NCBI GenBank assembly: GCA_964057225.1
Contig: OZ059897.1
Coordinates: 10,106,001 to 10,170,000 of the forward strand
Length of the DNA stretch: 64,000 nt
DNA from: Auanema rhodensis
Lineage: Eukaryota > Animalia > Nematoda
Direction: 5' to 3'
Below, in pieces: positions 42,186-64,000 of the stretch; the first letter of the stretch is position 1, and each line of letters opens with the position of its first letter. Under the pieces are notes generated by a model that was given only the letters and a program-made list of their open reading frames with translations, did not search any database and was not told the DNA's origin. The translations under genes were made by a program, and so were the position numbers.

Positions 42186-42368
42186 ACACGCCCCCAAACA
42201 GCTGTCAAAAACATACTTTTGAGGGCGTCAACTGTTAAAAATATACTTTTGGGGCGCGTCAGCTGTCAAAAACATATTTTTGAGCCTCAGCTGTTAAAAT
42301 CATATTTTGGGCTCAGAGTTCATGGATTTTTCTTTTTTAAATTCAAAAATCATGATTTAAAGCATGAT
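42186..42368 (+). mobile_element. Remnant of a Maverick TIR (terminal repeat block, extreme terminus missing)
   Basis: cacgcccccaaacagctgtcaaaaacatac...aaaatcatgatttaaagcatgatt matches 43722-43875 with substitutions. Confidence 0.85.
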
Positions 42369-42464
42369 TGAACTGAATTTTTAAAAAATAGTTTAAGTTT
42401 GAAAAAGAATTTTATGCTGATTTCATTGTTTTGCATAATTAAAAATAAGAATTCATAATTTAAG

Positions 42465-42907: not shown

Positions 42908-43056
42908 AGTAGAGAGCCATGCCGAATTTACTAACCACGCCCCCAAACAGTTGCTAAAAACATACTTTTCAGGGCGTCAGCTGCTAAAAACATACTTTTG
43001 GGGGCGTCAGCTGTCAAAATCATATTTTCGGCGTCAGCTGTCAAAAATATACTTTT
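42908..43056 (+). mobile_element. Second Maverick terminus remnant (related subfamily)
   Basis: Starts AGTAGAGAGCC followed by the gcgtcagctg repeat block; diverged from 43694. Confidence 0.85.
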
Positions 43057-43105
43057 CCTCCCGAGGCAGGCTCTCGAGCCTGCGCATGGATCAAAATGCA
43101 TGATT

Positions 43106-43408: not shown

Positions 43409-43693
43409 AACTCAGTTACGAAATTTACCCATTGCTTCTCAATTGTTTGTTGTTGAGAGCTTTGAATATTTTCCATTGCATGTATTTTCAATATACCGGT
43501 GTTATTGGTGAAAATATTGAAAACATTTCTGTATTAATTTGATAAAATTATTAGAATATGATAATATGGCTTACCCCTTTTTCCCTGATATACGATAATA
43601 AATTCCATATAATGTATCGTTTACCGTTTTCCTAAGATTTTCGTTTGATGCGATCCGTATGCAACATTTAGAACAGCAGAACATTGCCGCAGC

Positions 43694-44707
43694 AGTAGAG
43701 AGCCGTGCAAAATTTACTAACCACGCCCCCAAACAGCTGTCAAAAACATACTTTTGGGGGCGTCAGCTGCTAAAAACATACTTTTGGGGAGCGTCAGCTG
43801 TTAAAATCATATTTTGGCATCATGGTTCATGGATTTTCCTTTTTTAAATTTAAAAATCATGATTTAAAGCATGATTTTTTTTAAAATCAAATTTTAAATT
43901 TGTTTATTCAAATGTATGTATATAGTTTTAATTATTTTTAAATATATTAAGTAAAAATAAAAATTATAAATTTTAAATATTTAAATTATATTTAAATTTT
44001 ATATATATATAAATTATATTTAAACTTTAAATAATTAAATTATATTTAAATTTTATATATATAAATTATATTTAAACTTTAAATTTTATATATAAATTAT
44101 ATTTAAATATTTAAATATTTAAATATGTAAATTTGTTTTTAAATTTTATTTATTTCTTTATTTCTTTATTTCTTTATTAAATTTATTAATAATGTTTGTT
44201 TACTTATTTTGTTTATTTTTTATTGTATTGTGTTTGTATTGTTTTTATTTTAAAAAACAGTAAAATTTTTGCATGTATATCGTTTTGTTCACCGTACTTG
44301 TTATGGGTAATTCAATGGAACCCATATCGAAGGTTAATTCGATAAGAACGATATGAAATACCAAAATTTAATGGAACACATATCGAAAGTTAATTCGATA
44401 AGAACGATATGAAATAAAAAATTTAATGGAACACATATCGAAGGTTAATTCGATAAGAACGATATGAAATACCAAAATTTAATGGAACACATATCGAAGG
44501 TTAATTCGATAAGAACGACATTAAATTATTAATTTTTGAAATTACAAATTGTTATTAATTATATTTATTCTAACAAGTAAAGGTTTCAAATTATAATAAA
44601 AGATTAGTTTTAAACTTTATTTTACTAATATAACAATACAATAACTAAATAGAGCACACATTGAAGGTAAATACAATAAGATTAACAAACAGTTGCGCTG
44701 ACCTCAA
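43694..44707 (+). repeat. Maverick left terminal inverted repeat (~1014 bp)
   Basis: 44003-44707 is the reverse complement of 58427-59110; 43694-44005 matches 60996-61334. Confidence 0.95.
44314..44520 (+). repeat. 55-56 bp tandem repeat (~3.7 copies) inside the TIR; mirrored at ~58615-58820
   Basis: Unit atggaacacatatcgaaggttaattcgataagaacgatatgaaataccaaaattta starts at 44315, 44371, 44426 and 44482. Confidence 0.92.
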
Positions 44708-45176
44708 CGCACATCGATGGTTAATAAACACTAATAACTGCACTGTGGGGGTCTAAATATAGGATAATCATTTTAACATTTCAAAAGTTTTAGTTTCGTA
44801 ATATAATCATTATTAAATATTCAAGAATGAAATATTTTTTACATATAAAACGTTGGCAGTCATATGTTTTGTGGTACAATATGGGTTTAAAAGTATACTA
44901 TGATTAATATATGAGCTATTAAGCAAAGTTTAAAAAGCGTAAATGTTTTACAGAGATGGCTGTTGTTTATGGCACAAACGGTAAACAATAATGTTTAAAG
45001 AGATGTAAAAACTAATTAATATGCAGATTGTTTACAGGTTCAGAGTGCGCCAACTGCTGGCAACTGTCGATGAGATGAGTATATCTGCATAAATATGCTG
45101 TAAAATCTAATTAATAAAAGAATTTCATCAGCAAACTTGATTGTAACACAATGGGTTGTACTTTACAAAAATCTTT

Positions 45177-45186
45177 GTATAAAAGG
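45177..45186 (+). promoter_or_regulatory. Putative TATA box of the TIR-proximal gene
   Basis: GTATAAAAGG about 160 bp upstream of ATG 45337. Confidence 0.5.
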
Positions 45187-45336
45187 TTGGCAATTTTGCA
45201 ACATTTACATTTCAGCTCTGCCGACTATCCGAGGATCCGACGTTTCACCATCTCCTGCCACTCTTTGCCATTCGCCATAGACTGCTCCTCTCTGCAAGTT
45301 TGCCTTATATTTTAGAAAGTTGGATCTTTAGCGGAA

Positions 45337-45925
45337 ATGAAGCGTGCTGTACTTGCTGATGTGACAAATGTTGTGCGCAAATCGCCTGAACCTCAAGTAC
45401 CACGACCACCCACACCAGCTCCAAATTTTACAAGTTTTGGTATGAACCTTAACTTGTATTTTTTAAATCTTTAATTTAGATTCACCAATAAAGCAGATGG
45501 AGATTCTGAGAGAGAGCACTCCACCAAGGAGTGTATTAATGAGACCAATTTGTCTCTGCAAAACTTGTAGGGAATCATTGCAGGTTATAGACGAGTATCA
45601 CTGTTTCAGCCTCTGTATAAAGTGTAGAGGAAGGAATGATGCGTTGGGTCTTTTGAAGGAATTTCGTCACTATAAGCCCGAAAAGTTCTCTATTAATGTA
45701 AGCTTGCATATTTATTTATTTTCAATTTTATCATTTTTTTTTTAGATGCGCTCTTATAACACCATGACGTGCAAGCAATTGTTGAACAATATGGGCTATA
45801 TTGTTATATATGCAGATGAGGCTACTGTAAAGACTTTTGGTTATAAGCAGAATGTATTCTACTTTAAACTAAGTCCAGAAGCACTCAACCTGAACATGTT
45901 TATCCGCTTTGATCCTTCATTTTGA
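45337..45925 (+). CDS. Maverick spliced accessory gene (exons 45337-45439, 45480-45697, 45746-45925; 166 aa): D-box, CDK-type sites, CxxC/CxxC zinc finger
   Basis: GT-AG introns of 40 and 48 nt keep frame: MKRAVLADVTNVVRKSPEPQVPRPPTPAPNFTSFDSPIKQMEILRESTPPRS...CKTC...CIKC...FDPSF*. Confidence 0.7.
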
Positions 45926-46220
45926 CTACAACAAGCACAAATAGTACAATTGGCGTTTTATTCTTGTTTTGTTATGTGGCATTTTTATATTCTCAGCCGT
46001 AACATTTTTTTTTTCCAGCTCTTGCGAATATCCATCAATGGCTCATCAATTGAGGACGAATGATCAACCAACTGGTAAGAATTTGAAAATTTGAATAGTC
46101 TACATTTTTTTTTTCCAGGTTGAATTGTTGTTTGTATTTTGCTGGTTTTTTATTGTTACATTATGCGATATATCAAATAAATCATTTATTATAATTACAA
46201 TTGTTTATAACATTGAAAAA

Positions 46221-47288
46221 TTATACATTTAAATTTTCTGCATCTATCCATTCATTAAAGTTGTCGGGATATCCACTCCATTTTACAAATACTTGACGTT
46301 TACCGCTTCGAGTACGCTCTTTTAAAACTTTTTCTATATAGTACTTGTTACTTTTATTAGTAGCCAAGACAAGTTCAGGTTCGTAGAATATTCCCTTTAT
46401 ACGTTCACCATTATAATCTACAAGTTTATACACGGTTGGGTTTCCGGTTACAACCTCATCAATTGTGAATAGCTCCATTGTATATCCAGACTCGTAGCTT
46501 TTTTCAAAAGTACGCCTATTTTTGCTTATGCGAACAGTATCACCAATTTTAAAGCGGCTTTTAACAGCTGGTGCATATTCTTCAATGAATATATTTGCTT
46601 TAACATCAATGGGCCGCATTTTAATTGACCGATTATAAGATTTATTTATTCCTTCAACCAAGTCATCTAGGATATCAATCCATCGATGATTATTCTTGTA
46701 ATAGAGATATTTCATCATGCGTGTTTTTAAAGTTCTATTTGCTCGCTCCACCATTGCAGCCTTTTGTGGTGAACTTGTAGATCCGTGCAGTATGGCAAAC
46801 TTTTTGAATAGTTTTTCACAATGACTATTATAAAACTCTGTGCCATTATCAGTAATCAACTGAATTGGTATAAAATTCTTGAATAAATTTTCAAATGCAC
46901 TAGCAACCTCTATACCACCTTTAGTTTTCAAAGGCCTAACATATAACATGCGTGTATAAACATCAATCATGGTCAACATGTAAGCATAGCCGTCGTTTAA
47001 TTTTTTATATTTTTGCATATCAACCAAATCTGCTTGCACTGTTAGAAATCGACCACATCCTCTAGTCTTTCTAGTCTGCATACGCATTCTGGTTGGTTTA
47101 TGTCGTGTAAAAGTTTCAGAATCTTGCAAAAAATCATCAACTTGTACCTTTGAAATGCCATGTTTTCGTGCTTGCGATAATAAATTCTTGGCTGATGTAT
47201 ATGAAGCTGGGTGTTTTATATCGTAATAAATGCTCGCCAAAATATCATTTCCATAATCTAATGTAGAACCTTTTACGACCTTGGCCAT
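46221..47288 (-). CDS. Maverick retroviral-like (c-int) integrase with C-terminal chromodomain
   Basis: DDE: QADLVDM, ITDNGTEF, AMVERANRTLK; chromodomain YYIEKVLKER...VKWSGYPDNFNEWI; ATG 47288 preferred. Confidence 0.96.
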   Translation of the reverse strand: MAKVVKGSTLDYGNDILASIYYDIKHPASYTSAKNLLSQARKHGISKVQVDDFLQDSETFTRHKPTRMRMQTRKTRGCGRFLTVQADLVDMQKYKKLNDGYAYMLTMIDVYTRMLYVRPLKTKGGIEVASAFENLFKNFIPIQLITDNGTEFYNSHCEKLFKKFAILHGSTSSPQKAAMVERANRTLKTRMMKYLYYKNNHRWIDILDDLVEGINKSYNRSIKMRPIDVKANIFIEEYAPAVKSRFKIGDTVRISKNRRTFEKSYESGYTMELFTIDEVVTGNPTVYKLVDYNGERIKGIFYEPELVLATNKSNKYYIEKVLKERTRSGKRQVFVKWSGYPDNFNEWIDAENLNV

Positions 47289-48278: not shown

Positions 48279-48926
48279 TTAAACACTAAACACATTTCTG
48301 GCAACATAAACAATAGGGTTCTCCGCTGTTATAACAGATAGTATACGCTGCTTCTCACTTGTTAAAGGATGATTGTCAATCAGTAAATGACTATAGGGAG
48401 TAGACATTGCATCATCATACGCCTCTAGAGCATTTTTGAAACGTGGCCCAAATAATTGCTGCAGACAATTACGTATTTGTAATATATCTGAATGACTTTT
48501 CATCAGTATTATATATGTACTATTGATTCGACTGGTCCTGTCCAGTTGAAATGTCGCTTGCACAAGATTAAACACTGCCAAATTCCAGTGATGAGCCCAT
48601 ACTGTAAAAATGTTGTTGAGTAATTCCTTTGCTGCTTTATTCGATGAAAAAAAGTTCATCAAATCATCCAGCACTAGTATAGTATTTACTCCCTTTTGTT
48701 CTTTTATCAAATCAGGATCAGGAGGCCCTTGAATAATTATTAAACGCTCATCATTTATTGGTACACCTGACGATGACCCACATTGACTAAACCAGAATAT
48801 TCTATCAATGGGGACGTTGAAAAACTTTTCAGTATTTTCACATATGTGCTTTATGAGGGTTGTTTTACCGCATTGGGTAGCACCTATTACAGTTGTCTGA
48901 CTGGGTAGTTTGAAGCTGAAAACCAT
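48279..48926 (-). CDS. A32-like genome-packaging ATPase
   Basis: Walker A GATQCGKT, Walker B ILVLDD, AHHWNLAVFNLVQ, SRINSTYII. Confidence 0.95.
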   Translation of the reverse strand: MVFSFKLPSQTTVIGATQCGKTTLIKHICENTEKFFNVPIDRIFWFSQCGSSSGVPINDERLIIIQGPPDPDLIKEQKGVNTILVLDDLMNFFSSNKAAKELLNNIFTVWAHHWNLAVFNLVQATFQLDRTSRINSTYIILMKSHSDILQIRNCLQQLFGPRFKNALEAYDDAMSTPYSHLLIDNHPLTSEKQRILSVITAENPIVYVARNVFSV

Positions 48927-49005: not shown

Positions 49006-49863
49006 ATGGATGATTTTTACATTACTCTTCCATCATCAGTTGACTCTGAAAAAAGTAATACATCATCAGTGTTTCTTACCAGATTACCTGAAACACTAAG
49101 GCTACGCAATAATAGATATTGCATTGGGCTGACAGACATCATTTTTCCTTGTTCTATATTAAATGTTCAAAAAGATTTATCTTATACACTACGTTTTTCC
49201 AATAGAAAATTTATTCTACACTTGCCTAAAGGCAACTATGCAAATGGTGATGAAATAATACGCGGAATCAATGCTGGAAGAGAATCATTTATCGCCAACA
49301 ATACAAAGCCTCTTGGAGCTGAGGAAGAAGCACGTATAAAAAGTTTAATAGATAAAGATGAAGATGTAAAAAAATGGTATAATAATCGCCAGGCTGAGGC
49401 TAAGCTAGTGGAGGAAATGCTCGCAGACGCCACATTTCAGTTTAACAAAACATTGCAGCGCATAGAGTTTGTAACAAGCAAGCGACTATTAATGAATGCA
49501 ACGCTTGGTGATGATTTTGCATATTTTCTTGGTTTTGAAAATAAAAACATCAACGATACAATAATAGCCAGGCGTCCCATTGATTTTTCAAATAACATTA
49601 ATACAATGTATATATATTGTGATATTGTAGAATATTCCATTCTTGGTAATGTGAAAGCTAATTTACTTGCATGTTTGCCTGTACCACCTCCTACTGAATT
49701 TGGTAAAATGATTGCCAAAACATTTAATCCTATTCGTTATGTACCAATCACTAGACAAACACTCGATACCATACGTATTGAAATTTTAGATGAATTTGGT
49801 CGTCCTATGCAATTTAATTATGGTTCTACAGTTGTTACATTGCATGTTAAAAATATGAAATAA
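49006..49863 (+). CDS. Minor capsid protein (penton, single jelly roll)
   Basis: FYITLPS N-terminus, YIYCDIV...GNVKANLL, F.PIRYVP...I.IEILDEFGRP..F.YG..VVTLH typical of Polinton mCP. Confidence 0.88.
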   Translation: MDDFYITLPSSVDSEKSNTSSVFLTRLPETLRLRNNRYCIGLTDIIFPCSILNVQKDLSYTLRFSNRKFILHLPKGNYANGDEIIRGINAGRESFIANNTKPLGAEEEARIKSLIDKDEDVKKWYNNRQAEAKLVEEMLADATFQFNKTLQRIEFVTSKRLLMNATLGDDFAYFLGFENKNINDTIIARRPIDFSNNINTMYIYCDIVEYSILGNVKANLLACLPVPPPTEFGKMIAKTFNPIRYVPITRQTLDTIRIEILDEFGRPMQFNYGSTVVTLHVKNMK

Positions 49864-49868
49864 ACGTT

Positions 49869-50333
49869 TTATTCAACAGTTATACAATACCACATTTTTA
49901 TTTTCGAAGGTTTAAAAGATAGTTTAGGGCAGTTTTGTTTTTCGCTCGGCTCGTGTTGTGAATGTTCTCCGTCACTATTGCTGCGGCATCTTTTTGATTG
50001 GGTTGAATGTACAAACTCCTCAGCTTTTTCAAAGGGTTTGCTGGTATCATTTCCATCACCATCTTCACCATTCGTTCCATTATTATTATGAATACGCCGA
50101 ATATGACGCTCACAATTGAATCTTGTTCCAAAAGTTTCACTACAATGAGGGCACAAACGTCTACGAACACCATCCAAATGTCCATATTTTTGAATAAAGT
50201 CAGTATTGCTGATATAATTGTTACATATGGGTTGAATCCCTGCATGTCTTTTCAAAACGTGATCACTAAAATGCTTGGTTGAAGAAAATATTTCCTTGCA
50301 TGTACCACAATATTTGTTACATAAAAGTTCCAT
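49869..50333 (-). CDS. Maverick C2H2 zinc-finger accessory protein
   Basis: CGTCKEIFSSTKHFSDHVLKRH and CPHCSETFGTRFNCERHIRRIH; ATG 50333 preferred. Confidence 0.8.
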   Translation of the reverse strand: MELLCNKYCGTCKEIFSSTKHFSDHVLKRHAGIQPICNNYISNTDFIQKYGHLDGVRRRLCPHCSETFGTRFNCERHIRRIHNNNGTNGEDGDGNDTSKPFEKAEEFVHSTQSKRCRSNSDGEHSQHEPSEKQNCPKLSFKPSKIKMWYCITVE

Positions 50334-50586: not shown

Positions 50587-51042
50587 TTATATAGTAGCCA
50601 ATTTATAGTCGAATACTTTATGCATAAACGCTTTAATAAAGACATCATCATTTTTCAATAGTTTAAAAAATGAACAAATGCTTTCAAATGAATTACCAGC
50701 CGACAACATTAGTATTACAAATACCACATAGCCACCACAAGTGTATTCAATTAAACGTTGTGGTTTGCAAGTATTAATTTTTACCTTTTTATATTTGGCC
50801 AGATAATTTTGAATGTACTTGTTCATTTTATATCCCAAGCTACAGAAAAAATAGGCTTGCTTGTTACGGACAAAGATGACCTGCCAATGTGTGCCTGGCT
50901 TATCATGTGTGTCAGTATTTACGACAAGTGCAAAGTTTTTACGACGCGTTTTGGGTAGAGTATCAGCGCTATATACACCGAGGAATAGTTTCCGAGTGCT
51001 GGGGACAGATTGCAATAGTGATACTATTTCAGACGAATACAT
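50587..51042 (-). CDS. Adenain-like (C5) maturation cysteine protease
   Basis: FLGVYSAD, VNTDTHDKPGTHW, PQ....YTCGGY; His and Cys present, but the usual acidic triad residue appears as FFCSLG. Confidence 0.92.
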   Translation of the reverse strand: MYSSEIVSLLQSVPSTRKLFLGVYSADTLPKTRRKNFALVVNTDTHDKPGTHWQVIFVRNKQAYFFCSLGYKMNKYIQNYLAKYKKVKINTCKPQRLIEYTCGGYVVFVILMLSAGNSFESICSFFKLLKNDDVFIKAFMHKVFDYKLATI

Positions 51043-51546: not shown

Positions 51547-52881
51547 ATGGCTAAATTGATAGATTCAAAATCAGCACAAGCCCTTTTACCTAATATCAAC
51601 TATGGTGATATACCAGCGTCGGCATTAGGTGTAGAGTCTACTCGTACTGTACAAGTCCCTTTGAAAAATACGTTTCTTCCTCAAGGACCATGGGAATTTG
51701 TTATAGCTCAAAATTCCAAATCATTCCTCAATCTGAGAAGATGTTGGTTGAATGTAAAATTTAAAATTGTAACCACAAACGGTGATCCAGTACCAGACAA
51801 CCTTGTTTTTGCACCATGTCAACAATTTGCTGCCAGTTTAATACATTCGTATCATTTGAAAATTGGTGATGTTAGCGTGTATGACTCTACCGTGAATCAT
51901 GCCTATAAAACATATATCGAGAATATTTTAATGTATAGCAACGATGTTAAAGAGAGCAAACTTGCCATATCAGGCTATTATGCTGATAGATATATAGATA
52001 ATGCATCCAGTGCTGGATTTAGAACGCGTCAAGCACTTGTAAAAAATGGCATATTGTGTGAGATGGCTGCTCCCGTCAGTATCGACCTATTTAATCAAGA
52101 GCGACTGTTTGTAAACTATTCAAAAATGGAGCTAACTGCATATCCAAACCGTGATAACTTTTTAATTGACACTCTAGGCTGGAATAATGAAAACAAGGAT
52201 ACTACATTAAAGGAGGAGTTTCCAAATTTGAAAGTAGATATCAGCGATGTACATTTGCTCATTCAAGAGTTTGATCTAAACGCTGGATTAGCTATGGCTA
52301 TAGAAGATAAACTCGCAAAGGATCGAATACACTACCCCATGACATCAGTGAAAATGCGCTCTTATTTCATAGAAGGAGGCCGCTTGGATTCACCTAATAA
52401 TATATTATTCACGTCTCACACACCAAAACGTGTTGTAGTAGGTCTTGTTGGCGCACACGCCTATAATGGTACTTTTAAACATTCGCCATTCAACTTTAAA
52501 CCGTTTGATTTGAAAAATATATACTTGACGCTCAACAATAGGGTAATACCTACCCGTCCTTATAATTTAGAATGGCGATCTTCCTATGCCACAGCATATA
52601 TTGACATGCTGGAAGGTTTGGGGCTTGGTCGTACAGATTCATCCAATGGTATTACACCAGCAATGTATAAAGTTGGTTTCACATTTTTTGTATTTGATAT
52701 TAGTCGTACTGTGCATTCGTCAGAGTTATTTGATGTTATACGACAAGGTAATGTAGCCTTGAAATTGGAATTTGGTCAACAAACGCCGCAAGAGGGCTTA
52801 TATGCAATTGTTTATGCAGAGTATGACTCTATTCTTTCCATTGACAACAATCGTGCTCCATATATTGATACCAGTTTGTAA
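51547..52881 (+). CDS. Major capsid protein (double jelly roll)
   Basis: 444 aa; HAYKTYIENILMY, DLFNQERL, PKRVVVGLV...YNG....PFNFKPFDL, YAEYDSILSID are Polinton MCP hallmarks. Confidence 0.94.
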   Translation: MAKLIDSKSAQALLPNINYGDIPASALGVESTRTVQVPLKNTFLPQGPWEFVIAQNSKSFLNLRRCWLNVKFKIVTTNGDPVPDNLVFAPCQQFAASLIHSYHLKIGDVSVYDSTVNHAYKTYIENILMYSNDVKESKLAISGYYADRYIDNASSAGFRTRQALVKNGILCEMAAPVSIDLFNQERLFVNYSKMELTAYPNRDNFLIDTLGWNNENKDTTLKEEFPNLKVDISDVHLLIQEFDLNAGLAMAIEDKLAKDRIHYPMTSVKMRSYFIEGGRLDSPNNILFTSHTPKRVVVGLVGAHAYNGTFKHSPFNFKPFDLKNIYLTLNNRVIPTRPYNLEWRSSYATAYIDMLEGLGLGRTDSSNGITPAMYKVGFTFFVFDISRTVHSSELFDVIRQGNVALKLEFGQQTPQEGLYAIVYAEYDSILSIDNNRAPYIDTSL

Positions 52882-53019: not shown

Positions 53020-56000
53020 TTATTCACAATAACCGTAGGGTAAAGTACTATAATCTTGAAGATAACAAAGTTTATCCATTACGACTCTAGTACTTTTTGT
53101 CATATCCATTGTGGATATGGCACCGAGTTGCCTCTTTAACAAGGTTGTGTTGGTTTTTAAAACCAATTTCTCTCCATCCATAACGAGACCGCGAACCAGT
53201 CGCTCCATACTTTCAAAGTTTACCACTGACGCTGCCGTGTGGTCCAACGTCTGTAAATTATAAAATTATTTGAAAAGTCAAAGCTCGTACTTACCACTCC
53301 CTTTGCCTTTGTTACATATTTTACATCACCAGCTGCATTTACAAGTTTATAACTATAAACTTTTGCCGCTGGTGACACAAACTTGGTCATTGACCAACCA
53401 TCGGGTATTTCAGAGGTTAGTTTACCTAACCATTCACCCTTCATATCCTCAATTGGATCTGGCTCATCCAGGCACCTTTGATAAATTAGTGAATCCGTGT
53501 CTGAATAATGTAAGTTTAAATTGAATACAAAGTATAACATTACCTGTATACACCAAATTCTTTCCAATTTTCTCCATTGCCTTATACAATAGTAGCCTTG
53601 CATGAGCGGTTGTATAGGCCGCAATAGCTACATTTGTAAAAGGCGGTGGTGCCAAATGTGAATCCTCTGGTACTGTTGTGCAGTACGCAACATTATCCAC
53701 AATTTTGAACCCAGTGAGTTCCCTTGCAGGATCAGTAATGATCCTACCAATTTCTGGGTCCTCAACACCAATAATCTTGGTTTGGGCTTTATCAGGTCTT
53801 TGACCCATTTTACCCCAGACACTATAAGCAAATTTGTAATGTATTGTTTTAAAAAGTTTACAAACCTATTTAGCTGCAGTTTGGCAATGCTACGCATGGC
53901 AGCATTCTTCTCACTTTTATTGCTCTCCAGAGCAACACCAGTGTTCTCCTCGTGCTCTTGGAGATAAATCACCTGTAAAATTCTATTTAATGTGATACTT
54001 TTGTTAAAACATACCTTTTCTTCCTCTGTCATGTTTGGCTTTGGCCAGCCCGACGCCTCTTGTTTAATTTTTATGTACTTTTGTACAAACTCTTTAAACA
54101 GGCCGCCTTGTTGCCATTCTTCCCAGTGCCACACCTCATGCACATTAAGCACTTTATAGCCACGTTGTATGGCACACTCGAGCTCAACATGTGTCACGGT
54201 TAGATGCAGCTTTCTAGCATTTACATCATTCTGGTGCTCACATGTTACATTTTTACTTTTGACTGCACAAGTGCGGCAGTTTGTAAAAATAAGTTTACCG
54301 GCAATACGTGTGCCTAATACAGGGTACAGCAAATTTGTGGGTGCAAGCACGTCACATTTTACTAGCCCCTTGTATGGGCAACATGTCTCAAAGCTTTTGA
54401 AACCCTCAGTAATAACTTTGGGATTACCTACAGGGTAATAGGCATCAAAAGCGGTGACATATGGATATAGTGAACAAAAGTCCACATACTCGAGCGAGTA
54501 TCTATCCGAAGCTTGTGCCAAAAGCTTATATGTCTGGGTGCGGCCACCGGTAAAGGCATCTCTAGGTGCCAAGCGTGTAACAACATTTGTTTCACGCATA
54601 AATTTCGCCATTTCTTCATTGGCCGAAATTTGTGCATTAATTTCGTGCTCCCACACTGTGGTAACACTAATGCCTTGGCTTTGAATTGCTTCAAGCCTTT
54701 TCATGGTTTTATCATAAACCTAAATTTTAAAAATTAAAATGATTAAAAAAGTCACAATTACCTCTTCCATTGTTTCACCATTTCTGCCTGGTGCTATAGC
54801 GCTCTTGTTGGTGCACTGGGGGCAACCATGGTAAATACAACCATTAATCTACAAAAATTTGCACTTTTTACATTTATTACAAATTACTCACCTCATAGCC
54901 ATGATTGGCAACGGGGTCATAAGCATCGAGTAGATAGCGATGGCCATCTACTCTCACTGCAAATTCACCACCATTAAGCTTATGCATTAATGGGCGGCCC
55001 AATCCTTGTTCTAGCCATTTTATATACTTTATGGCTATTATGCTCTGCTTTTGACCGGCATAATAACCAGTCTCGGGCAGAATACCCACTTGGTTCTCTT
55101 TAATGTGGTTCATTTTCAACTGTAATATACTAGTTTTGAAAATGCTTGTATTTGAAAAAACTTGCCTGGAATAAAGAGAAACTGGCAAATGTCATACACT
55201 GTATGACAGGGTTCCAGCCAGTGGTGGCGGTTGCCAACTTCATGTAAACTTTCATACAGTTGGTTAAAATACGGACATCTGTCCTACAATATTCCAAAAG
55301 CTCTTCATCAAAATCAAACGCTCTTTGATTACGCTCTTCATACCAAATATTGAATGAAGCTAGGTCTTCTGCTTTCATTCTAGCAGTACAATAGTACTGT
55401 TTTGGTGGTAAAGATGGTAACACTTTGCCATAATTTATTGGATGGTTAAAGAGGTAAGGAAACTGTCCTTTACTCATATAAGGTACACCAAATGCCTTGG
55501 GTAACGCTGATAGGGGTAAAGGCACTAATAAATAACTATCTTTAAAATATAAATGATTAAATTTTTGACCTCTTAAAGGCTTGACAACCATGCTTATAAT
55601 CTTGGTCCCATTTAAAATTGGATCAGGATATATACCACGGTTTATCAGCCTAGACACCAAGAAATGTATGTCAAAGCGTGAACCATTATGCGCAATCAAA
55701 ATTGCATTATCATTCTCAACAGAGTTGAGTAACCAATCAAGGAAACGATCTGTTACAGACCATTCACTATCACCTTGTTGATACCCAAAATGGCCCTCCT
55801 TGGTTGTGCATTTTTCACATGAGTTGGCATCTATACAACTTTCACAAAATTTATTATACACAACCATATTGGGCCATTGTTCATCTGCATATTCATGAAC
55901 ATTTGTACCGCTTTTTAACACAACCGTTTCAAAGTCATAGAATATAATCTTAAACAAGTAAGCATTACACTTGTAAAGATGTAAAATACAAACCTTGTAT

Positions 56001-58219
56001 TTTTCTTGCCTCTTTTTTAACTGATCCTTCTTCTTGTCGTTAGGTGGTACCCAACAACAAGAATGATCTTCAGGCTTTGTTTGTCCACACTTTTTGCAAA
56101 ATTTCTCATTGCAATTGTGCGGTCTATCTGCACGCACCCTGTGATAATGATCACAGTTTTCACATGTCTGAATTTAGTCTTGTAAAATTTTATATATATT
56201 TTTTAAATTACCTTAAACATTCGACATGTTTTTCTAATATGCCTGTCAAAGCATTGACGAGTTTTAAACAAAACTCTACAACTATCACATCTTATGCTAC
56301 TTTCAACCACATTTTCCATCGAATTACATTTTAAGGTGTGGCATTTCTTACACTTGGCTTTACATCTATGCAACACTGTTTTGTAAGATAATTTACAGTG
56401 TTGGCATATAATACCATCAAAAATCTGTGATCTACTACAAGTTGTAATACAGTCATAATGATTATTTCGGTAGCCTAGTGTTACCACTTTGCTAGCCGTT
56501 TCATTAAAGATACGCTGAATAGCGTACATACGCTGTCCAGGTGGCCTAGCGTATACTACAAACTTATAGTCTGTATTACAACTTGCAATAATATTTAAAT
56601 GGTTCAAATTATAATTTGGTAAATGTACAGAAATACCACACCTATTCAATAAATTGATATGATGTGGTTGATTTGGCAACAAGATGTAGTTGCGACGAAG
56701 ATTTTGAATCCTCCGCTTCTCAACAACATCTTCTGCTGCCTCTTCATCGGCTCTCCACATTCCCACAACTGCTGCTCTAGCCAGGCAATGTGTATCAGTG
56801 TTCTCAATTGTGCCAGGTATTTTGAGTTCGGCATCAAAATAGAAACCAACTCTACCTTCACCAGGCATCAGGCTTGGTTGCACTGGTCTCTCATCAAACA
56901 CATACATTTCAATATTCATTGCCTGGCTAATTACAGCCTCTCGCTTTGATTGCTGCACCTTGCTGATGGCATTCATGATGGCAACGCCATCCAAATGCTC
57001 CCTTCTACGGAAATCCATAAATATGGATCCCTTTTCAAAGGATGGGTGCTCTATTGATAAACAAAATAGCGCTTTTTGTTTATCTGGCACACCACTTTCA
57101 GCAAGGCACCGATCAAGAAACTCATTAAATAGCCGCGGCATGACAACATGCATTGGCTCATTAATGGCTTCCAAATGTGGGAACGTGAGCGATCTAACGA
57201 CCACGTTGGTGAACCGACCAGTTCGTTTTATGCGTCGGTGTGACCACTATAATACATATTTTTTATAATGGTTATACGCTTTTAATTTAAATATAAATAA
57301 TTTTTGTTTATAACTTTTAATAAATTTACTTTTCTTTAAATTATTTTTATATTCTTTTATTAAAATTAAAAGGTATTTGATTTTTAAATATAAAGATTTT
57401 TTTTTTTATCAACTTTGAAAAAACTTTTATAAACATTTGTTAATGTTTAAAAATTAATGAGATGGTGTTTTATTATTTTACTAGTTCAAAATGTTTGAAA
57501 TATTTATAGTTTGTAAGAATTCAAAATTGGTTGAAAGAAAGATAGATAGTGAGATGAAATGTAAAGATTTTAAAATGAATGCTGTTCAAAAGAATGAATA
57601 TGTAAATTTCAAAATACTTGCAATTTGTTTGATAAAAGATATAGATTGAGATGAAATGTAAAGATGAGAAAGAGAGAATTTTATGAATGCAATTGAAAAA
57701 GAGAAATAAATTTCAAAATGTTTTCAAAATATGCAACTGGAGCAAGAGAAAATTTCATGTTTCAAAAGATATATTATGAAATGATATGTAAATAAAAGAT
57801 CGCACCTCTATTTTACAGACATCGTTGAATGCCGCTCCATATCCGACTTGCCCTCCACTGGTTGATGGGGTAGCGGGATCCCATTCTCTTAAAAAGAAAA
57901 AACTAATTGTTATAATTTTTAATATCGCTTACTCATCACTGTCATCCAAGGTTATTACTTCAATAACCCTTGATGATGAGGGCCCACTGTTAAAAGTGGG
58001 TGATGTGGGCTCACAGAGCTCGATCCCACCAGCCTCGGTAAACTTTATACGTTTACTAAAAAAACAAAATATATATAAAGATTCAAAATATTGTTAAATT
58101 ACCTGAGCTGATTAATCTCTTCATAATCAAATCCTAGCTCTTCACATAAACGTTTATAACTGAAAAAAGAAAAAGTTTACAAACAAATAAACAAAAAGAC
58201 ACAACCTATTAGCAGCCAT
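53020..58219 (-). CDS. Protein-primed DNA polymerase B, 14 exons, 1369 aa (TP region, OTU-like, zinc fingers, 3'-5' exonuclease, Vsr-like insert, polymerase)
   Basis: Exons 58219-58206, 58159-58103, 58055-57933, 57887-57806, 57246-56212, 56167-55994, 55948-55166, 55119-54892, 54848-54762, 54719-54015, 53972-53866, 53821-53544, 53500-53295, 53250-53020 sum to 4110 nt; motifs YDFET, AHNGSRFD, YCRTDV, DFCSLYP, KLQLNSVWGK, YTDTDS, KVY, TLPYGY; the first four exons are less certain. Confidence 0.92.
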
Positions 58220-58426
58220 TGTACCTTGATATAATGAATATATCAGTCTACACATTGCTGTTGGCATTGTAATTTGTTATGTAACATGGATTTGGGTACA
58301 GCTGTCAAAACTAGCAGTTGCGATAAACTTTAAAATAAATAAGCTTATTGAATACATCTGTTTTTATTGTCCCCATCGGATTAATTTTTGTTATTAGTTC
58401 TTATTAAATTAACTTTATGCGTTTCA

Positions 58427-59110
58427 TTGAGGTCAGCGCAACTGTTTGTTAATCTTATTGTATTTACCTTCAATGTGTGCTCTATTTAGTTATTGTATTG
58501 TTATATTAGTAAAATAAAGTTTAAAACTAATCTTTTATTATAATTTGAAACCTTTACTTGTTAGAATAAATATAATTAATAACAATTTGTAATTTCAAAA
58601 ATTAATAATTTAATGTCGTTCTTATCGAATTAACTTTCGATATGTGTTCCATTAAATTTTGGTATTTTATATCGTTCTTATCGAATTAACCTTCGATATG
58701 TGTTCCATTAAATTTTGTATTTCATATCGTTCTTATCGAATTAACCTTCGATATGTGTTCCATTGAATTTTGTATTTCATATCGTTCTTATCGAATTAAC
58801 CTTCGATATGTGTTCCATTGAATTACCCATAACAAGTACGGTGAACAAAACGATATACATGCAAAAATTTTACTGTTCTTTAAAATAAAAACAATACAAA
58901 CACAATACAATAAAAAATAAACAAAATAAGTAAACAAACATTATTAATAAATTTAATAAATAAATAAAATTTAAAAAACAAATTTACATATTTAAATATT
59001 TAAATATTTAAATATAATTTATATATAAAATTTAAAGTTTAAATAAAATTTATATATATAAAATTTAAATATAATTTAAATATTTAAAGTTTAAATATAA
59101 TTTATATATA
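58427..59110 (-). repeat. Maverick right TIR, inner part (cut by Tc1 at a TA)
   Basis: Reverse complement of 44003-44707 with few differences. Confidence 0.95.
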
Positions 59111-60469
59111 CAGTCATGTGTAAAAGAAAAAGGGCAAAACTTTCGAATGGTCTCCTGAAGTAGTGAGACTACAAAAAATTAAAACTATGAAAAATAGAAA
59201 TGGTGAGCAGACCACAAATCGAAAAATGCAAAAAAAACCAAAAAATTAAGACTTTATTAATATTTTGTCGGATACCCGAAATTATCAATCACAGCTTTGA
59301 GCCTTCTATTCATCGAATTGACGAGCTTCTTCAAAATACCCGGAGAAGTTTCTCGCCAGAGGATTCTTAGGCATCTGAACTTCTCGTCCTTGTTCGATGA
59401 CGGAAATTGAGCCGCCCTTCTTCCCAAATCTCTCCATAGATGTTCGATCGGATTCAGATCGGGCGATTGACTAGGCCAGGGTAAGAGAGTGACCCTATTC
59501 TGCTGAAACCACTGTTTAGTTGAATGAGCAGTGTGCTTTGGGTCGTTGTCCTGCTGGAAGATGAATCTATTCCGCGTGCGGAATCGATCCAAAGCATACG
59601 GCAGGAAGACTTCAGAGAGAATATTCTGATAGTCGGAAGCACACATGCGTCCTTCAATCCTAAACAGTGGTCCAACTTCCTCGCTGGTGAAACAACCCCA
59701 CACCATTACGTTTCCACCTCCATGTTTGAAGGAAGGCTTTAAATAACGGTGGTTGTAACGCTCACCAACGGGCCTTCTGACAAAGCCAGGTCCATCATTG
59801 CCAAAAAGGCAGAATTTGCTCTCATCTGTGAAGATGACTCTGCTCCAATCTTCTGGTGTCCAATGAAGATGAGCCCGAGCAAATTCTAGCCTCGCTTGCC
59901 GGTTCTTGGCACTAACAAGCGGTTTGATGGCAGGTCTTCTTGCTCTCAAACCACGCTTCAGGAGACGCCTTCTAATATTGCTAGGGTCAAGATTGACCCT
60001 ATACATCATAGTAAGGTGTTCTGTCAGCTGTTTTGACGTCAATTCTGGATGACGTTGAGCCAAGCGGACCATGGTGTTGTCCTGTGATGGTGTGGTCTTC
60101 GGTGGGCGCCCTGGTTTTGTCTTCTTTATCATTGCTACACCTTGGCTGTGATCCTTGATGATGGCTTGAACGCAGCTCTTCGAGATAGCCGTAAAAGCAG
60201 CAATTTTTCGGGTTGCAAACCCTTCGTCTTTGAGCCTGAGGACTGTCTCCCTCATCTCGTTGCTGTATCTTCTGCCTTGAACCATCTAAATTTGCATATT
60301 AAAAATGAAGCTGAATCATTTTAATTTCCAAAATAATACATTTCAAAGTTAGTTTTAAAAAATGAATTCAGCTCCATTTTTTAGCAACATTTCAGATTCC
60401 TAAATTGTAGTCTGAGCTCCAGATTCTAATATTTTCTAAATCTTGCCCTTTTTCTTTTACACATGACTG
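59111..60469 (-). mobile_element. Tc1-family DNA transposon, intact copy (1359 bp)
   Basis: 27-bp TIRs CAGTCATGTGTAAAAGAAAAAGGGCAA with TA on both sides. Confidence 0.97.
59257..60285 (-). CDS. Tc1 DD34E transposase (342 aa)
   Basis: GRPPKT, FTDESKF, QQDNDPKH, SPDLNPIEHLW; 34 residues between the second D and E. Confidence 0.97.
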   Translation of the reverse strand: MVQGRRYSNEMRETVLRLKDEGFATRKIAAFTAISKSCVQAIIKDHSQGVAMIKKTKPGRPPKTTPSQDNTMVRLAQRHPELTSKQLTEHLTMMYRVNLDPSNIRRRLLKRGLRARRPAIKPLVSAKNRQARLEFARAHLHWTPEDWSRVIFTDESKFCLFGNDGPGFVRRPVGERYNHRYLKPSFKHGGGNVMVWGCFTSEEVGPLFRIEGRMCASDYQNILSEVFLPYALDRFRTRNRFIFQQDNDPKHTAHSTKQWFQQNRVTLLPWPSQSPDLNPIEHLWRDLGRRAAQFPSSNKDEKFRCLRILWRETSPGILKKLVNSMNRRLKAVIDNFGYPTKY

Positions 60470-60995
60470 TATGTGCTGCTGCTATGAAAGAATCTCTTTC
60501 AATTCAGGGAGTTAATATTTTTTTTAATTACTTAGATCTTTTCAGATCTCTAGTATTAAGCTTCTCCATAAGTTTTATCCTTGCTGGAATGAGGGGTTGC
60601 CTTACATATTAGTATCTAGGTTGGTAAATCATGAAACGGGTGATGACAATGAGCACATTAATAAGTTAAAGGATGTAATAGGAAAAGGGAATCGAGGGAT
60701 AATTGAGGTATCTTTATTTTTTCTAACTTTATTATTTTTGGTTTGATTATATTCACAGGGGCCTAAAAGAGAAACCTATGGCGTATATAACGTTATAGGA
60801 AAAAAAGAGACATAGGGAGATTTTATATTACAGATGTGTTACATAGAGCCTTGTTTGCACAGTAAGTTTTTTTTTTCGCACAAGCAATACTTTCGATATA
60901 GCTCGCAAGATGGCAATCACAACATCCACTTGAAGACATTGGAAGGTACGGAAATCATGATGAGAGCATCCTGGAATATTGCGAACATAGCTGCG

Positions 60996-61334
60996 AGTAG
61001 AGAGCCGTGCAAAATTTACTAACCACGCCCCCAAACAGCTGTCAAAAACATACTTTTGGGGGCGTCAGCTGCTAAAAACATACTTTTGGGGCGCGTCAGC
61101 TGTCAAAAACATATTTTTGAGCGTCAGCTGTTAAAATCATATTTTGGGATCATGGTTCATGGATTCTCCTTTTTTAAATTTAAAAATCATGATTTAAAGC
61201 ATGATTTTTTTTTAAAATCAAATTTAAATATGCTTTTTCAAATGTATGTATATATTTTTAATTATTTTTAAATATATTAAGTAAAAATAAAAATCTTAAT
61301 TTTAAATATTTAAATTATATTTAAATTTTATATA
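60996..61334 (+). mobile_element. Displaced and inverted outer end of the Maverick right TIR
   Basis: AGTAGAGAG terminus preceded by GCTGCG, the reverse complement of the left TSD CGCAGC. Confidence 0.92.
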
Positions 61335-62677
61335 CAGTCATGTGTAAAAGAAAAAGGGCAAAACTTTCGAATGGTCTACTGAAGTAGTGAGACTACAAAA
61401 AATTAAAAACTATGAAAAATAGAAATGGTGAGCAGACCACAAATCGAAAAATGCAAAAAAAACCAAAAAATTAAGACTTTATTAATATTTTGTCGGATAC
61501 CCGAAATTATCAATCACAGCTTTGAGCCTTCTATTCATCGAATTGACGAGCTTCTTCAAAATACCCGGAGAAGTTTCTCGCCAGAGGATTCTTAGGCATC
61601 TGAACTTCTCGTCCTTGTTCGATGACGGAAATTTTCTTCTTCCCAAATCTCTCCATAGATGTTCGATCGGATTCAGATCGGGCGATTGACTAGGCCAGGG
61701 TAAGAGAGTGACCCTATTCTGCTGAAACCACTGTTTAGTTGTGCTTTGGGTCGTTGTCCTGCTGGAAGATGAATCTATTCCGCGTGCGGAATCGATCCAA
61801 AGCATACGGCAGGAAGACTTCAGAGAGAATATTCTGATAGTCGGAAGCACACATGCGTCCTTCAATCCTAAACAGTGGTCCAACTTCCTCGCTGGTGAAA
61901 CAACCCCACACCATTACGTTTCCACCTCCATGTTTGAAGGAAGGCTTTAAATAACGGTGGTTGTAACGCTCACCAACGGGCCTTCTGACAAAGCCAGGTC
62001 CATCATTGCCAAAAAGGCAGAATTTGCTCTCATCTGTGAAGATGACTCTGCTCCAATCTTCTGGTGTCCAATGAAGATGAGCCCGAGCAAATTCTAGCCT
62101 CGCTTGCCGGTTCTTGGCACTAACAAGCGGTTTGATGGCAGGTCTTCTTGCTCTCAAACCACGCTTCAGGAGACGCCTTCTAATATTGCTAGGGTCAAGA
62201 TTGACCCTATACATCATAGTAAGGTGTTCTGTCAGCTGTTTTGACGTCAATTCTGGATGACGTTGAGCCAAGCGGACCATGGTGTTGTCCTGTGATGGTG
62301 TGGTCTTCGGTGGGCGCCCTGGTTTTGTCTTCTTTATCATTGCTACTCCTTGGCTGTGATCCTTGATGATGGCTTGAACGCAGCTCTTCGAGATAGCCGT
62401 AAAAGCAGCAATTTTTCGGGTTGCAAACCCTTCGTCTTTGAGCCTGAGGACTGTCTCCCTCATCTCGTTGCTGTATCTTCTGCCTTGAACCATCTAAATT
62501 TGCATATTAAAAATGAAGCTGAATCATTTTAATTTCCAAAATAATACATTTCAAAGTTAGTTTTAAAAAATGAATTCAGCTCCATTTTTTAGCAACATTT
62601 CAGATTCCTAAATTGTAGTCTGAGCTCCAGATTCTAATATTTTCTAAATCTTGCCCTTTTTCTTTTACACATGACTG
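61335..62677 (-). mobile_element. Tc1 copy 2, defective (frameshifted transposase 61482-62493)
   Basis: Same TIRs as copy 1; 11-bp deletion after QQDNDPKH and a net 6-bp deletion after DLGRR. Confidence 0.95.
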
Positions 62678-63203
62678 TATGTGCTGCTGCTATGAAAGAA
62701 TCTCTTTCAATTCAGGGAGTTAATATTTTTTTTAATTACTTAGATCTTTTCAGATCTCTAGTATTAAGCTTCTCCATAAGTTTTATCCTTGCTGGAATGA
62801 GGGGTTGCCTTACATATTAGTATCTAGGTTGGTAAATCATGAAACGGGTGATGACAATGAGCACATTAATAAGTTAAAGGATGTAATAGGAAAAGGGAAT
62901 CGAGGGATAATTGAGGTATCTTTATTTTTTCTAACTTTATTATTTTTGGTTTGATTATATTCACAGGGGCCTAAAAGAGAAACCTATGGCGTATATAACG
63001 TTATAGGAAAAAAAGAGACATAGGGAGATTTTATATTACAGATGTGTTACATAGAGCCTTGTTTGCACAGTAAGTTTTTTTTTTCGCACAAGCAATACTT
63101 TCGATATAGCTCGCAAGATGGCAATCACAACATCCACTTGAAGACATTGGAAGGTACGGAAATCATGATGAGAGCATCCTGGAATATTGCGAACATAGCT
63201 GCG

Positions 63204-63542
63204 AGTAGAGAGCCGTGCAAAATTTACTAACCACGCCCCCAAACAGCTGTCAAAAACATACTTTTGGGGGCGTCAGCTGCTAAAAACATACTTTTGGGGC
63301 GCGTCAGCTGTCAAAAACATATTTTTGAGCGTCAGCTGTTAAAATCATATTTTGGGATCATGGTTCATGGATTCTCCTTTTTTAAATTTAAAAATCATGA
63401 TTTAAAGCATGATTTTTTTTTAAAATCAAATTTAAATATGCTTTTTCAAATGTATGTATATATTTTTAATTATTTTTAAATATATTAAGTAAAAATAAAA
63501 ATCTTAATTTTAAATATTTAAATTATATTTAAATTTTATATA
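63204..63542 (+). mobile_element. Duplicate of the displaced Maverick TIR end
   Basis: Appears identical to 60996-61334, offset 2208 bp. Confidence 0.92.
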
Positions 63543-64000
63543 CAGTCATGTGTAAAAGAAAAAGGGCAAAACTTTCGAATGGTCTACTGAAGTAGTGAGA
63601 CTACAAAAAATTAAAAACTATGAAAAATAGAAATGGTGAGCAGACCACAAATCGAAAAATGCAAAAAAAACCAAAAAATTAAGACTTTATTAATATTTTG
63701 TCGGATACCCGAAATTATCAATCACAGCTTTGAGCCTTCTATTCATCGAATTGACGAGCTTCTTCAAAATACCCGGAGAAGTTTCTCGCCAGAGGATTCT
63801 TAGGCATCTGAACTTCTCGTCCTTGTTCGATGACGGAAATTTTCTTCTTCCCAAATCTCTCCATAGATGTTCGATCGGATTCAGATCGGGCGATTGACTA
63901 GGCCAGGGTAAGAGAGTGACCCTATTCTGCTGAAACCACTGTTTAGTTGTGCTTTGGGTCGTTGTCCTGCTGGAAGATGAATCTATTCCGCGTGCGGAAT
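63543..64000 (-). mobile_element. Tc1 copy 3 (runs off the window), same deletions as copy 2
   Basis: Matches the sequence from 61335 onward. Confidence 0.93.

Follow-up and report, generated by a model that had tools for sequence, protein, structure and literature searches.

A Maverick/Polinton polymerase gene of Auanema rhodensis is divided by 13 host-type introns and predicted to depend on host splicing

Maverick papers state or assume that the core genes of these elements are intron-free, and those of nematode Mavericks were called intronless by Widen et al. (bioRxiv 10.1101/2022.07.12.499685). In the window analysed here (the whole stretch of 64,000 nucleotides from the clade V nematode Auanema rhodensis), the longest open frame of the gene for pPolB, a protein-primed DNA polymerase of family B, is 363 aa. 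The question raised by this locus is whether the pieces are the debris of a dead copy or the exons of a gene spliced by its host and, if the latter, what the introns do and how they came to be there.

The gene sits in a Maverick/Polinton of about 15.7 kb, the parts of which lie along the window as follows:

43688-43693: target duplication, 6 bp, left, directly before the left repeat
43694..44738, plus strand: left terminal inverted repeat, about 1.05 kb, starting AGTAG
44900..46180, plus strand: one or more small genes of several exons, between the left terminal repeat and the integrase, no assigned family
46221..47288, minus strand: rve integrase and chromodomain in one ORF of 355 aa
47245..48266, minus strand: two single ORFs of 238 and 102 aa, no Pfam matches
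48279..48926, minus strand: packaging-type ATPase, single ORF, 215 aa, weak P-loop matches
49006..49863, plus strand: probable minor capsid protein, 285-aa ORF, candidate by position and size
49869..50333, minus strand: C2H2 zinc-finger ORF, 154 aa
50587..51042, minus strand: adenain-like protease, single ORF, 151 aa (PF00770, E 0.0015)
51547..52881, plus strand: double-jelly-roll major capsid protein in one ORF of 444 aa
53020..58219, minus strand: pPolB gene, 14 exons, 1369 aa, PF03175 on two ORF pieces
58390..59110, minus strand: right terminal inverted repeat, inner part, 698/712 aligned letters identical to the left
59112..60470, minus strand: insertion of a Tc1-like transposon into the right terminal repeat
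60990..61335, plus strand: right terminal repeat, outer part, flipped, 302/310 aligned letters match those of the left end
60990-60995: target duplication, 6 bp, right, within the flipped outer right repeat

The terminal repeats (about 1.05 kb, 97-98% identical) both start with AGTAG at the termini of the element. The inner right repeat is cut at a TA run, the outer part recurs at 63198-63543 in a 2208-nt tandem unit, and the 6-bp duplications match once the inverted orientation of the right end is allowed for. Long terminal inverted repeats, 5'-AG ends, and a 6-bp target duplication mark the element as a Maverick/Polinton, as do the rve integrase (PF00665, E 1.4e-8), the packaging ATPase and protease (both matches lying below curated cut-offs), and the major capsid protein, whose structural model (pLDDT 69.6) best matched Sputnik MCP 3j26 (E 2.8e-14, TM 0.61) and has the double-jelly-roll fold. 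The capsid protein search returned 8 relatives only, and an alignment-based scan of metagenome and viral contigs recovered no related capsid loci. The 285-aa minor capsid candidate gave no Pfam match. Introns were located in pPolB and in the left-end gene, where those at 45567-45609 and 45698-45745 are joined in RNA; the capsid, protease, and ATPase ORFs are without introns, and no intron candidate was found in six other ORFs of the element.

Read on the minus strand from an ATG at 58219 to a stop at 53020, the pPolB gene resolves into 14 exons of 4110 nt in all, encoding 1369 aa plus a stop with no internal stops, and 13 introns, twelve of 42-47 nt and one of 559 nt:

Intron 1: 58160..58205, minus strand, 46 nt, phase 2; splice signals only
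Intron 2: 58056..58102, minus strand, 47 nt, phase 2; splice signals, holds a 1-nt indel of DNA run X3
Intron 3: 57888..57932, minus strand, 45 nt, phase 2, in-frame stop; splice signals only
Intron 4: 57247..57805, minus strand, 559 nt, phase 0; splice model and multiple alignment with 13 long homologues
Intron 5: 56168..56211, minus strand, 44 nt, phase 0; splice signals, 30/56 spanning HSPs within 3 residues
Intron 6: 55949..55993, minus strand, 45 nt, in frame, stop-free; splice score 8.2
Intron 7: 55120..55165, minus strand, 46 nt, GC-AG; splice model, 89/101 HSPs collinear
Intron 8: 54849..54891, minus strand, 43 nt, interrupting the VSR-like motif; 102/118 HSPs collinear
Intron 9: 54720..54761, minus strand, 42 nt, in-frame stop; 117/124 HSPs collinear
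Intron 10: 53973..54014, minus strand, 42 nt, in frame, stop-free; RNA joint in run X12, 126/132 HSPs collinear
Intron 11: 53822..53865, minus strand, 44 nt, phase 2, within motif B; RNA joint in run X12, 98/102 HSPs collinear
Intron 12: 53501..53543, minus strand, 43 nt, phase 1, within motif C; 79/85 HSPs collinear, outside the RNA cover
Intron 13: 53251..53294, minus strand, 44 nt; RNA joint in run X12, 77/77 HSPs collinear

All 13 are of the U2 spliceosomal type with GT(GC)-AG ends, an exonic AG stands before 11 of them, and AT content is 73-87% in the introns and 59% in the exons. Using a splice score trained on the 13 introns of the host gene NLE1, the 12 short introns were rated at 4.6-15.4, whereas none of 225 GT..AG candidates from the six other element ORFs exceeded 3.8; among 274 candidates internal to pPolB exons, one scored high (8.5), and its excision would take out a conserved stretch. 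An unsupervised splice model recovered 12 of the 13 introns and missed intron 6, which directly precedes exonuclease motif I and at which 45 of 58 HSPs fall within 3 residues of the spliced model. No BLAST HSP spans intron 4. A high-scoring in-frame candidate at 55569-55525 was dropped, as its removal would delete a conserved exonuclease stretch, and for intron 7 the GC donor was preferred to a GT at 55161, which gives the wrong phase. Exon 4 encodes the start of the TP-like domain; exons 1-3, at the N-terminus, are homology-unsupported splice predictions, and the true start may differ.

The sequence-only reading, which had proposed these 13 introns and the 1369-aa frame, also named RNA junction reads and alignment to homologues as checks, and both agree with the model as far as they cover it. 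Homologues are collinear with the spliced model at introns 6-13. Contigs of run X12 (one of three runs, X12, X13, and X14, presumed to be RNA) carry exact GT-AG joints at introns 10, 11, and 13 (3/13); this spliced RNA comes to two contigs of low depth (2.4-3.6), both from a single run in a single study, and the other 10 of the 13 junctions lie outside its cover, which speaks neither for nor against them. The element family is multi-copy, and because the X12 contigs differ from the window at 5/208 and 2/172 letters, the spliced RNA would stem from another copy or strain. Expression is demonstrated for the family and putative for this single locus. Two X13 contigs extend unspliced into terminal portions of introns 7, 8, and 9, representing retention, pre-mRNA, or DNA; they are diverged and may be DNA. 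Run X14 yielded pieces of 19-23 nt only, and in the DNA run X3 the joints listed (15 of 25) include none at an intron.

Matched to a profile built from 8 homologues, the spliced product scores 893 bits, with all catalytic motifs present; it is a protein-primed family B polymerase with the exonuclease and polymerase motifs of a Maverick/Polinton. Its regions are a TP-like N-terminus, Cys/His motifs of vOTU-like type, a Zn-finger region, exonuclease motifs I-III, a VSR-like insert, and polymerase motifs A-C. TP and vOTU domains are known upstream of the exonuclease in Maverick/Polinton pPolBs (PMC11161782), and the putative TP/vOTU region here aligns to homologues and has Cys/His motifs, with no Pfam match. 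The closest named full-length proteins are the annotated pPolBs of C. brenneri and C. angaria (33-35% identity). In a quick-method tree of 18 rows, from which 8 of 25 homologues were excluded as being under 700 aa, the protein joined no supported small group and stood away from the Heterodera proteins. Most homologous pPolBs are uninterrupted. Seven of 140 distant pPolBs break off at the motif-B intron site and carry a read-through Arg there, a hint, at the protein level and for the first time here, of a hidden intron-bearing class. A DNA pattern of motif B plus splice donor returned 13 viral loci, 0/13 with polymerase homology, and so gave this signature no DNA confirmation; scans of metagenome contigs with exon 10, and of viral contigs with two of the motif-B-ending proteins, found no related loci.

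What, then, do the introns do? Intron 11 lies in motif B and intron 12 in motif C, where it splits the first Asp codon, so that two introns do cut catalytic motifs as first read from the sequence. Retention would shift the frame for nine introns (9/13), bring an in-frame stop for two (2/13), and leave it open for two (introns 6 and 10), bearing out the expectation that splicing is needed for the full-length polymerase (11/13). Given 13 host-type introns, three of which are spliced out in RNA, the full-length enzyme is predicted to be splicing-dependent, and we consider it highly probable that this is a Maverick/Polinton pPolB split by host-type introns whose complete product depends on ordinary, likely constitutive, host splicing. 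The gene would be transcribed in the nucleus by host RNA polymerase II and the remaining ten introns would likewise be spliced out; a TP-vOTU-exonuclease-polymerase polyprotein would then replicate the element and the rve integrase insert it, both as proposed for Polintons.

The reading of the locus as a dead copy, its pieces being decay products and its "introns" chance insertions or the outcome of a fitted model, can claim the rearranged right terminus, and this copy may indeed be immobile, its right end having been flipped by the Tc1 rearrangement. It is opposed by the RNA joints, which refute it at the family level, by the 4110 nt free of stops, by collinearity with homologues, by the wholeness of the other core ORFs, and by a synonymous excess in exon variants: among those listed (40 of 493 rows), 16/27 were synonymous, 11/27 residue-changing, and 0/27 stops, against an expected synonymous share of 0.21-0.28 (p 1e-5 to 6e-4), and the exon variants look purifying. 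Among the 12 of 15 X3 indels listed, those within the gene span lie in introns 2 and 11 only. Decay is thus extremely improbable. That the host or the element toggles pPolB splicing to control replication is improbable too, albeit less so. Retention of 11 of the 13 introns would kill the protein, one donor is of the rarer GC type, and unspliced contigs occur in X13; those contigs, however, are diverged and may be DNA, introns within catalytic motifs are expected of any intron-rich conserved gene, and the splice signals score like those of constitutive host introns. Nothing found bears on regulation, so the earlier idea of host splicing as a regulated gate on replication is not upheld: splicing is a dependency, not a demonstrated switch.

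As regards origin, an intron-making transposon might have sown the introns, for which there is precedent in dinoflagellate Polinton-like elements (PMC12166617), and with which the narrow size range would fit. The 12 short introns are, however, no more alike than shuffles (best pairwise score 25 versus a shuffled mean of 22.2, p 0.16), the near-identical intron copies that define introners are lacking in pPolB, and the sizes match ordinary host introns, as had been claimed (medians of 44 nt in NLE1, the one gene from which host size was taken, and 44 nt in pPolB; Mann-Whitney p 0.31). Such an origin is very unlikely; introner copies of great age might no longer resemble one another. Across diverged copies the intron ends stay in place, and two relatives (56-57% identity) terminate 3-5 residues past the intron-10 site, which lends indirect support to long residence. 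The introns were probably gained one by one, mostly behind an exonic AG, over a long stay in nematode germ lines, and not handed down by a forebear already rich in them; they would persist because the element copies itself DNA-to-DNA, without an RNA step to erase them. Compatible with the preferred reading of ordinary splicing dependency is the suggestion that introns are kept because the long polymerase message then mimics a host gene and escapes nematode small-RNA silencing of intron-poor, virus-like genes. ERI-6/7-dependent siRNAs hit duplicated, intron-poor genes, a Polinton-like polymerase being perhaps an old target, according to PMC11414722; introns are tied to latency-expressed genes in an algal endogenous giant virus, according to the preprint bioRxiv 10.64898/2026.10.09.758095; and here they occur in pPolB and the left-end gene, with none in the capsid, protease, and ATPase ORFs. 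Against this, the germ line requires the integrase as well, yet that gene consists of a single ORF, and the silencing pathway was described in another host, C. elegans, such that the suggestion is possible but rather doubtful.

Among known systems, the nematode Mavericks of Widen et al. and Jeong et al. (bioRxiv 10.1101/2023.08.22.554363 / PMC10748475) are alike in host, size (about 15-16 kb), long terminal repeats, their pPolB, rve integrase, ATPase, protease, and capsid genes, and in having introns in the region that separates the left repeat from the integrase. They differ in that the core genes of Widen et al. are intronless, as opposed to 13 introns in the Auanema rhodensis pPolB, and in that the pPolB1 of Jeong et al. 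(PMC10748475) is without VSR, whereas a VSR-like insert is present here. The C. briggsae-type Polinton carries a fusogen and either pPolB1 without VSR or pPolB2 with HNH; compared by description only, the present element has a VSR-like motif and no recognised fusogen, no ORF of fitting size or family being found among its ORFs. Vertebrate Mavericks (Barreat and Katzourakis, PMC8097293) share the terminal repeats, the 6-bp target duplication, and the core gene set; the intronless core, a descriptive rather than definitional trait (PMC8097293; Widen et al.), is departed from by the 13 pPolB introns. Introner-bearing eupolintoviral elements of dinoflagellates also hold spliceosomal-type introns; those (PMC12166617) consist of transposon copies in repeat, roughly one in four of them within coding sequence, unlike the mutually unrelated introns here, mostly in pPolB and with splicing demonstrated for three of them. 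Ginger1 and other cut-and-paste DNA transposons, likewise mobile elements that replicate as DNA, have an enzyme gene with 1-4 host-type introns, one GC-AG (PMC2836005), but are not virus-like, have fewer introns, and encode a transposase instead of a protein-primed polymerase. Punuivirus, a Chlamydomonas endogenous giant virus, has host-like introns in 61/506 genes (mean 2.5 per gene) (bioRxiv 10.64898/2026.10.09.758095), being a nucleocytovirus in an alga and not a Polinton.

No spliced Maverick pPolB was found in the literature searched, although Repbase entries or bioRxiv supplements may mention some. Adenoviruses, nuclear viruses derived from Polintons, make their polymerase and terminal protein from spliced messages, but by joining a short leader to a long ORF, and are not known to carry many short introns inside the catalytic core. 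Maverick surveys screen for long ORFs or run prokaryotic gene callers, and intact families like this one would for that reason be dropped or scored as fossils; at 363 aa the longest frame falls below the filters of one published survey, a 900-aa ORF and a 650-aa match, so ORF-based surveys would miss this copy, as anticipated. It is a tentative and, in our view, unlikely extension that intron-bearing polymerases form a widespread, living Polinton class invisible to surveys, with a motif-B intron recurring at the same codon in elements of only 35-42% likeness, and that the nematode introns are an adaptive disguise from silencing.

Since most of its homologues are uninterrupted, the pPolB gene would document in small space how introns were gained again and again within one mobile gene, and comparison of copies could test both the mechanism of gain (AG proto-splice sites, repeated gain at a single codon) and its benefit (escape from silencing). 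The element likely relies on the worm's own splicing machinery for self-copying; its introns leave its life cycle dependent on the nucleus and on hosts that splice introns of 42-47 nt, a dependence that would limit its horizontal transfer.

The gene for the protein-primed DNA polymerase (pPolB) occupies 58219-53020 on the minus strand, where the ORF list yields seven pieces of 104-363 aa between 53220 and 57246, two of them matching PF03175 (organellar/viral polymerase B family). Removal of 13 introns, numbered from the start codon, leaves 14 exons totalling 4110 nt, or 1369 codons plus a stop, with zero internal stops. Twelve introns measure 42-47 nt and one 559 nt; the ends are GT-AG in twelve and GC-AG in intron 7, the AT content is 73-87% as against 59% in the exons, and 11 of the 13 sit directly after an exonic AG. 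If retained, nine would shift the frame, two would introduce an in-frame stop, and two (introns 6 and 10) would be read through. Polymerase motif B is interrupted by intron 11, motif C by intron 12, and a VSR-like motif by intron 8. The sequence-only reading, which had reported 13 introns, a 1369-aa frame, and two introns within catalytic motifs, was accurate, and the observation of an intron-split pPolB gene in a Maverick/Polinton is confirmed. The long intron (57247-57805; 559 nt, 81% AT) carries a 44-nt direct repeat at 57525 and 57622 and plus-strand purine-rich runs, with no notable ORF.

Every structural test that was run identifies the element as a Maverick/Polinton, and its parts follow in this order:

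43694-44738, left terminal repeat
44900-46180, small multi-exon region lying between the left repeat and the integrase; RNA joins across two of its introns
integrase with chromodomain
two ORFs without assigned family
ATPase
probable minor capsid ORF
zinc-finger ORF
50587-51042, adenain-like protease
150-aa ORF
444-aa protein
58219-53020, minus strand, pPolB
right terminal repeat

The predicted structure of the 444-aa protein folds as a double jelly roll, with the Sputnik capsid as best match (E 2.8e-14). The protease has Cys at the position after the catalytic His, where related proteases presumably carry an acidic residue. In the multi-exon region, a frame from about 45338, overlapped by a second one, opens with an RxxLxxxxN sequence and contains several SP/TP sites, which we take to recall cell-cycle destruction boxes and CDK sites; a Pfam search of one exon of the region gave zero matches.

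A Tc1-like element (59112-60470) interrupts the right terminal repeat at 59110. The outer 340 nt that the repeat lacks there lie in inverted orientation at 60996-61335, and the six bases ahead of them are the reverse complement of those ahead of the left end. The usual 6-bp target duplication is thereby restored, which shows a single insertion, about 15.7 kb long, with later rearrangement of its right end; the repeat arms are 97-98% identical and the insertion is therefore young. Across 59112-64000, a 2208-nt tandem unit contains the outer 340 nt and some 520 nt of flank, both inverted, together with a deleted Tc1; the arrangement resembles either the product of inversion and duplication driven by Tc1 or an artefact of assembly within the tandem unit. 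Tandem subrepeats of 55-56 nt lie in the terminal repeats, accompanied near the ends by 28-31-nt subrepeats of unequal copy number between the arms (44309-44535, 58599-58827). Further pieces resembling a Maverick terminus (42174-42369, 42908-43055) alternate with a truncated transposase ORF of another Tc1 type (42459-43103), which makes 42174-43103 a probable hotspot of nested insertions.

Direct evidence for splicing came from X12, one of two runs of a single study taken as RNA: two of its contigs have joints, each with GT-AG ends, at which introns 13, 11, and 10 are precisely left out. Junctions in spliced RNA were the check that the sequence-only reading had proposed. Both contigs are of low depth and come from this one run of the study; 5/208 and 2/172 of their letters depart from the window, and thus they derive from another copy or strain. 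In X13, the companion run, five short contigs cover stretches of the coding part and show no joints. Two of them continue into intron ends (introns 7, 8, and 9); being unjoined and more diverged, these two represent either unspliced RNA or DNA from other copies. For the DNA run X3, 15 of 25 joints were listed, and not one of these coincides with an intron. Splicing of the message is shown at three sites, and without splicing there is no intact catalytic core.

A generic splice model with hand-set weights, given the start and stop as its sole input, recovered 12 of the 13 introns, leaving intron 6 unspliced. A second score, trained on 13 introns of one host gene, gave 4.6-15.4 for the 12 short pPolB introns and did not exceed 3.8 for any of 225 GT..AG candidates from six further ORFs of the element. 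One of 274 exon-internal candidate introns scored 8.5 and was rejected, since its removal would cost a conserved stretch. Alignment to homologues, also proposed from sequence alone, spanned junctions 5-13.

BLAST alignments to 149 homologues agreeing with the spliced model to within three residues (minus strand)
Intron 5, 56211-56168: 30/56
Intron 6, 55993-55949: 45/58
Intron 7, 55165-55120: 89/101
Intron 8, 54891-54849: 102/118
Intron 9: 117/124
Intron 10, 54014-53973: 126/132
Intron 11, 53865-53822: 98/102
Intron 12, 53543-53501: 79/85
Intron 13, 53294-53251: 77/77

Introns 1-4 were spanned by no BLAST alignment among the 149; in the multiple alignment, the end of exon 4 coincides with the N-terminal domain's first conserved strand.

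The gene was present in eleven DNA runs (four organism labels, three studies; one may be the window's own source), with at least half its words in ten. In X3, 3791 contigs on the element occupy all identity bands from 99+ down to under 90, which points to a multi-copy family. Among 27 exon variants listed from X3 (its best 40 of 493 rows) and the RNA runs, 16 were synonymous, 11 residue-changing, and 0 stops, a synonymous excess with p of 1e-5 to 6e-4 against expected shares of 0.21-0.28.

The closest proteins are fragments at 51-57% identity, and the closest named full-length ones, from Caenorhabditis brenneri and C. angaria, reach 33-35% overall. Two of these fragments end 3-5 residues past the intron-10 site with a tail starting with Val, as could be expected from a GT donor; contig ends could account for it as well. 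Motif B was anchored in 140 of 174 homologues, the next residue being Ser in 110 and Arg in seven; all seven Arg homologues end within 1-33 residues without the remainder of the motif, and three have a second cluster member of equal length. Arg followed by a stop is what translation running on into a phase-2 intron at the intron-11 site would yield, and the window's own read-through into intron 11 likewise gives it. For motif C, one of 109 anchored homologues showed the corresponding sign for intron 12; further homologues end a few codons beyond in both motifs. The DNA behind the motif-B-ending proteins, sought in viral contigs by protein matching and a motif-B plus splice-donor pattern, was not found. 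The motif-B signature, indirect evidence from proteins, fits an intron that is old and shared as well as one gained repeatedly at a strong AG proto-splice site. Fourteen ORF-called fragments end in or just after motifs B or C with tails resembling splice-donor read-through (P0167, P0178, P0194, P0197, P0205, P0210, P0236, P0187, P0193, P0215, P0260, P0229, P0195, P0294), which suggests that these motifs may be intron hotspots in many Polintons.

The host Notchless gene lies at 6813-8818. Among the best 120 of 643 matches to one of its exons, Ancylostoma and Nippostrongylus proteins reach 92% identity, those of further clade V nematodes 87-90%, and named non-nematodes no more than 84%. The 13 predicted introns of the gene span 40-57 nt with a median of 44, equal to that of the short pPolB introns (p 0.31; one host gene compared), which bears out the earlier claim that intron size equals the host's; pPolB has 3.2 introns per kb, Notchless 9.1. 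Many introns of about 45 nt also occur in host genes at 1820-2160, 32000-33950, and 37236-39766, presumably ROMO1-like, anion-exchanger-like, and thiamine-dependent lyase-like, respectively, judged by eye from their motifs. Amid this intron-rich host region, 28331-29488 is an intron-free 385-aa ORF with zero Pfam matches.

The pPolB introns show no likeness to one another in pairwise comparison, and therefore no recent introner was their maker. The Polinton life cycle is not known to include a reverse-transcribed step that could erase introns. Piecemeal acquisition in a lineage long resident in nematodes is the favoured origin. Introns might provide an escape from the silencing of intron-poor genes (PMC11414722), the most testable idea for why pPolB and the left-end gene have introns and the other ORFs do not, although the intron-free integrase counts against it. 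The sequence-only interpretation is supported in part: an intact core needs splicing; host splicing as a gate, in the sense of regulation, has no support.

Widen et al. (preprint) termed core genes 'intronless' and cargo genes intron-bearing, Barreat and Katzourakis described intact elements without introns, and Bellas et al. (PMC10120064) stated that endogenous viruses 'do not contain introns'. The eukaryote-wide search of Jeong et al. filtered on a 650-aa match and a 900-aa ORF, and the accessible part of their supplement gave zero matches to 'intron'. Spliceosomal introns in pPolB are not reported in the available text of Starrett et al. (PMC8502044), PMC12220804, or PMC12721341; an introner paper (PMC12166617), Ginger transposons, and punuivirus served for comparison. 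The search for intron-bearing Polinton pPolBs found no spliced one described in the full-text literature within reach, that is, outside subscription papers, Repbase, and bioRxiv supplements.

In the predicted mode of action, pPolB would be transcribed by host polymerase II and all 13 introns removed by the host spliceosome, as for the host's own genes, the product working as the TP-vOTU-exonuclease-polymerase polyprotein proposed for Polintons (PMC11161782). The element differs from described Maverick/Polinton members in that its polymerase gene is rich in introns and is directly supported by RNA.
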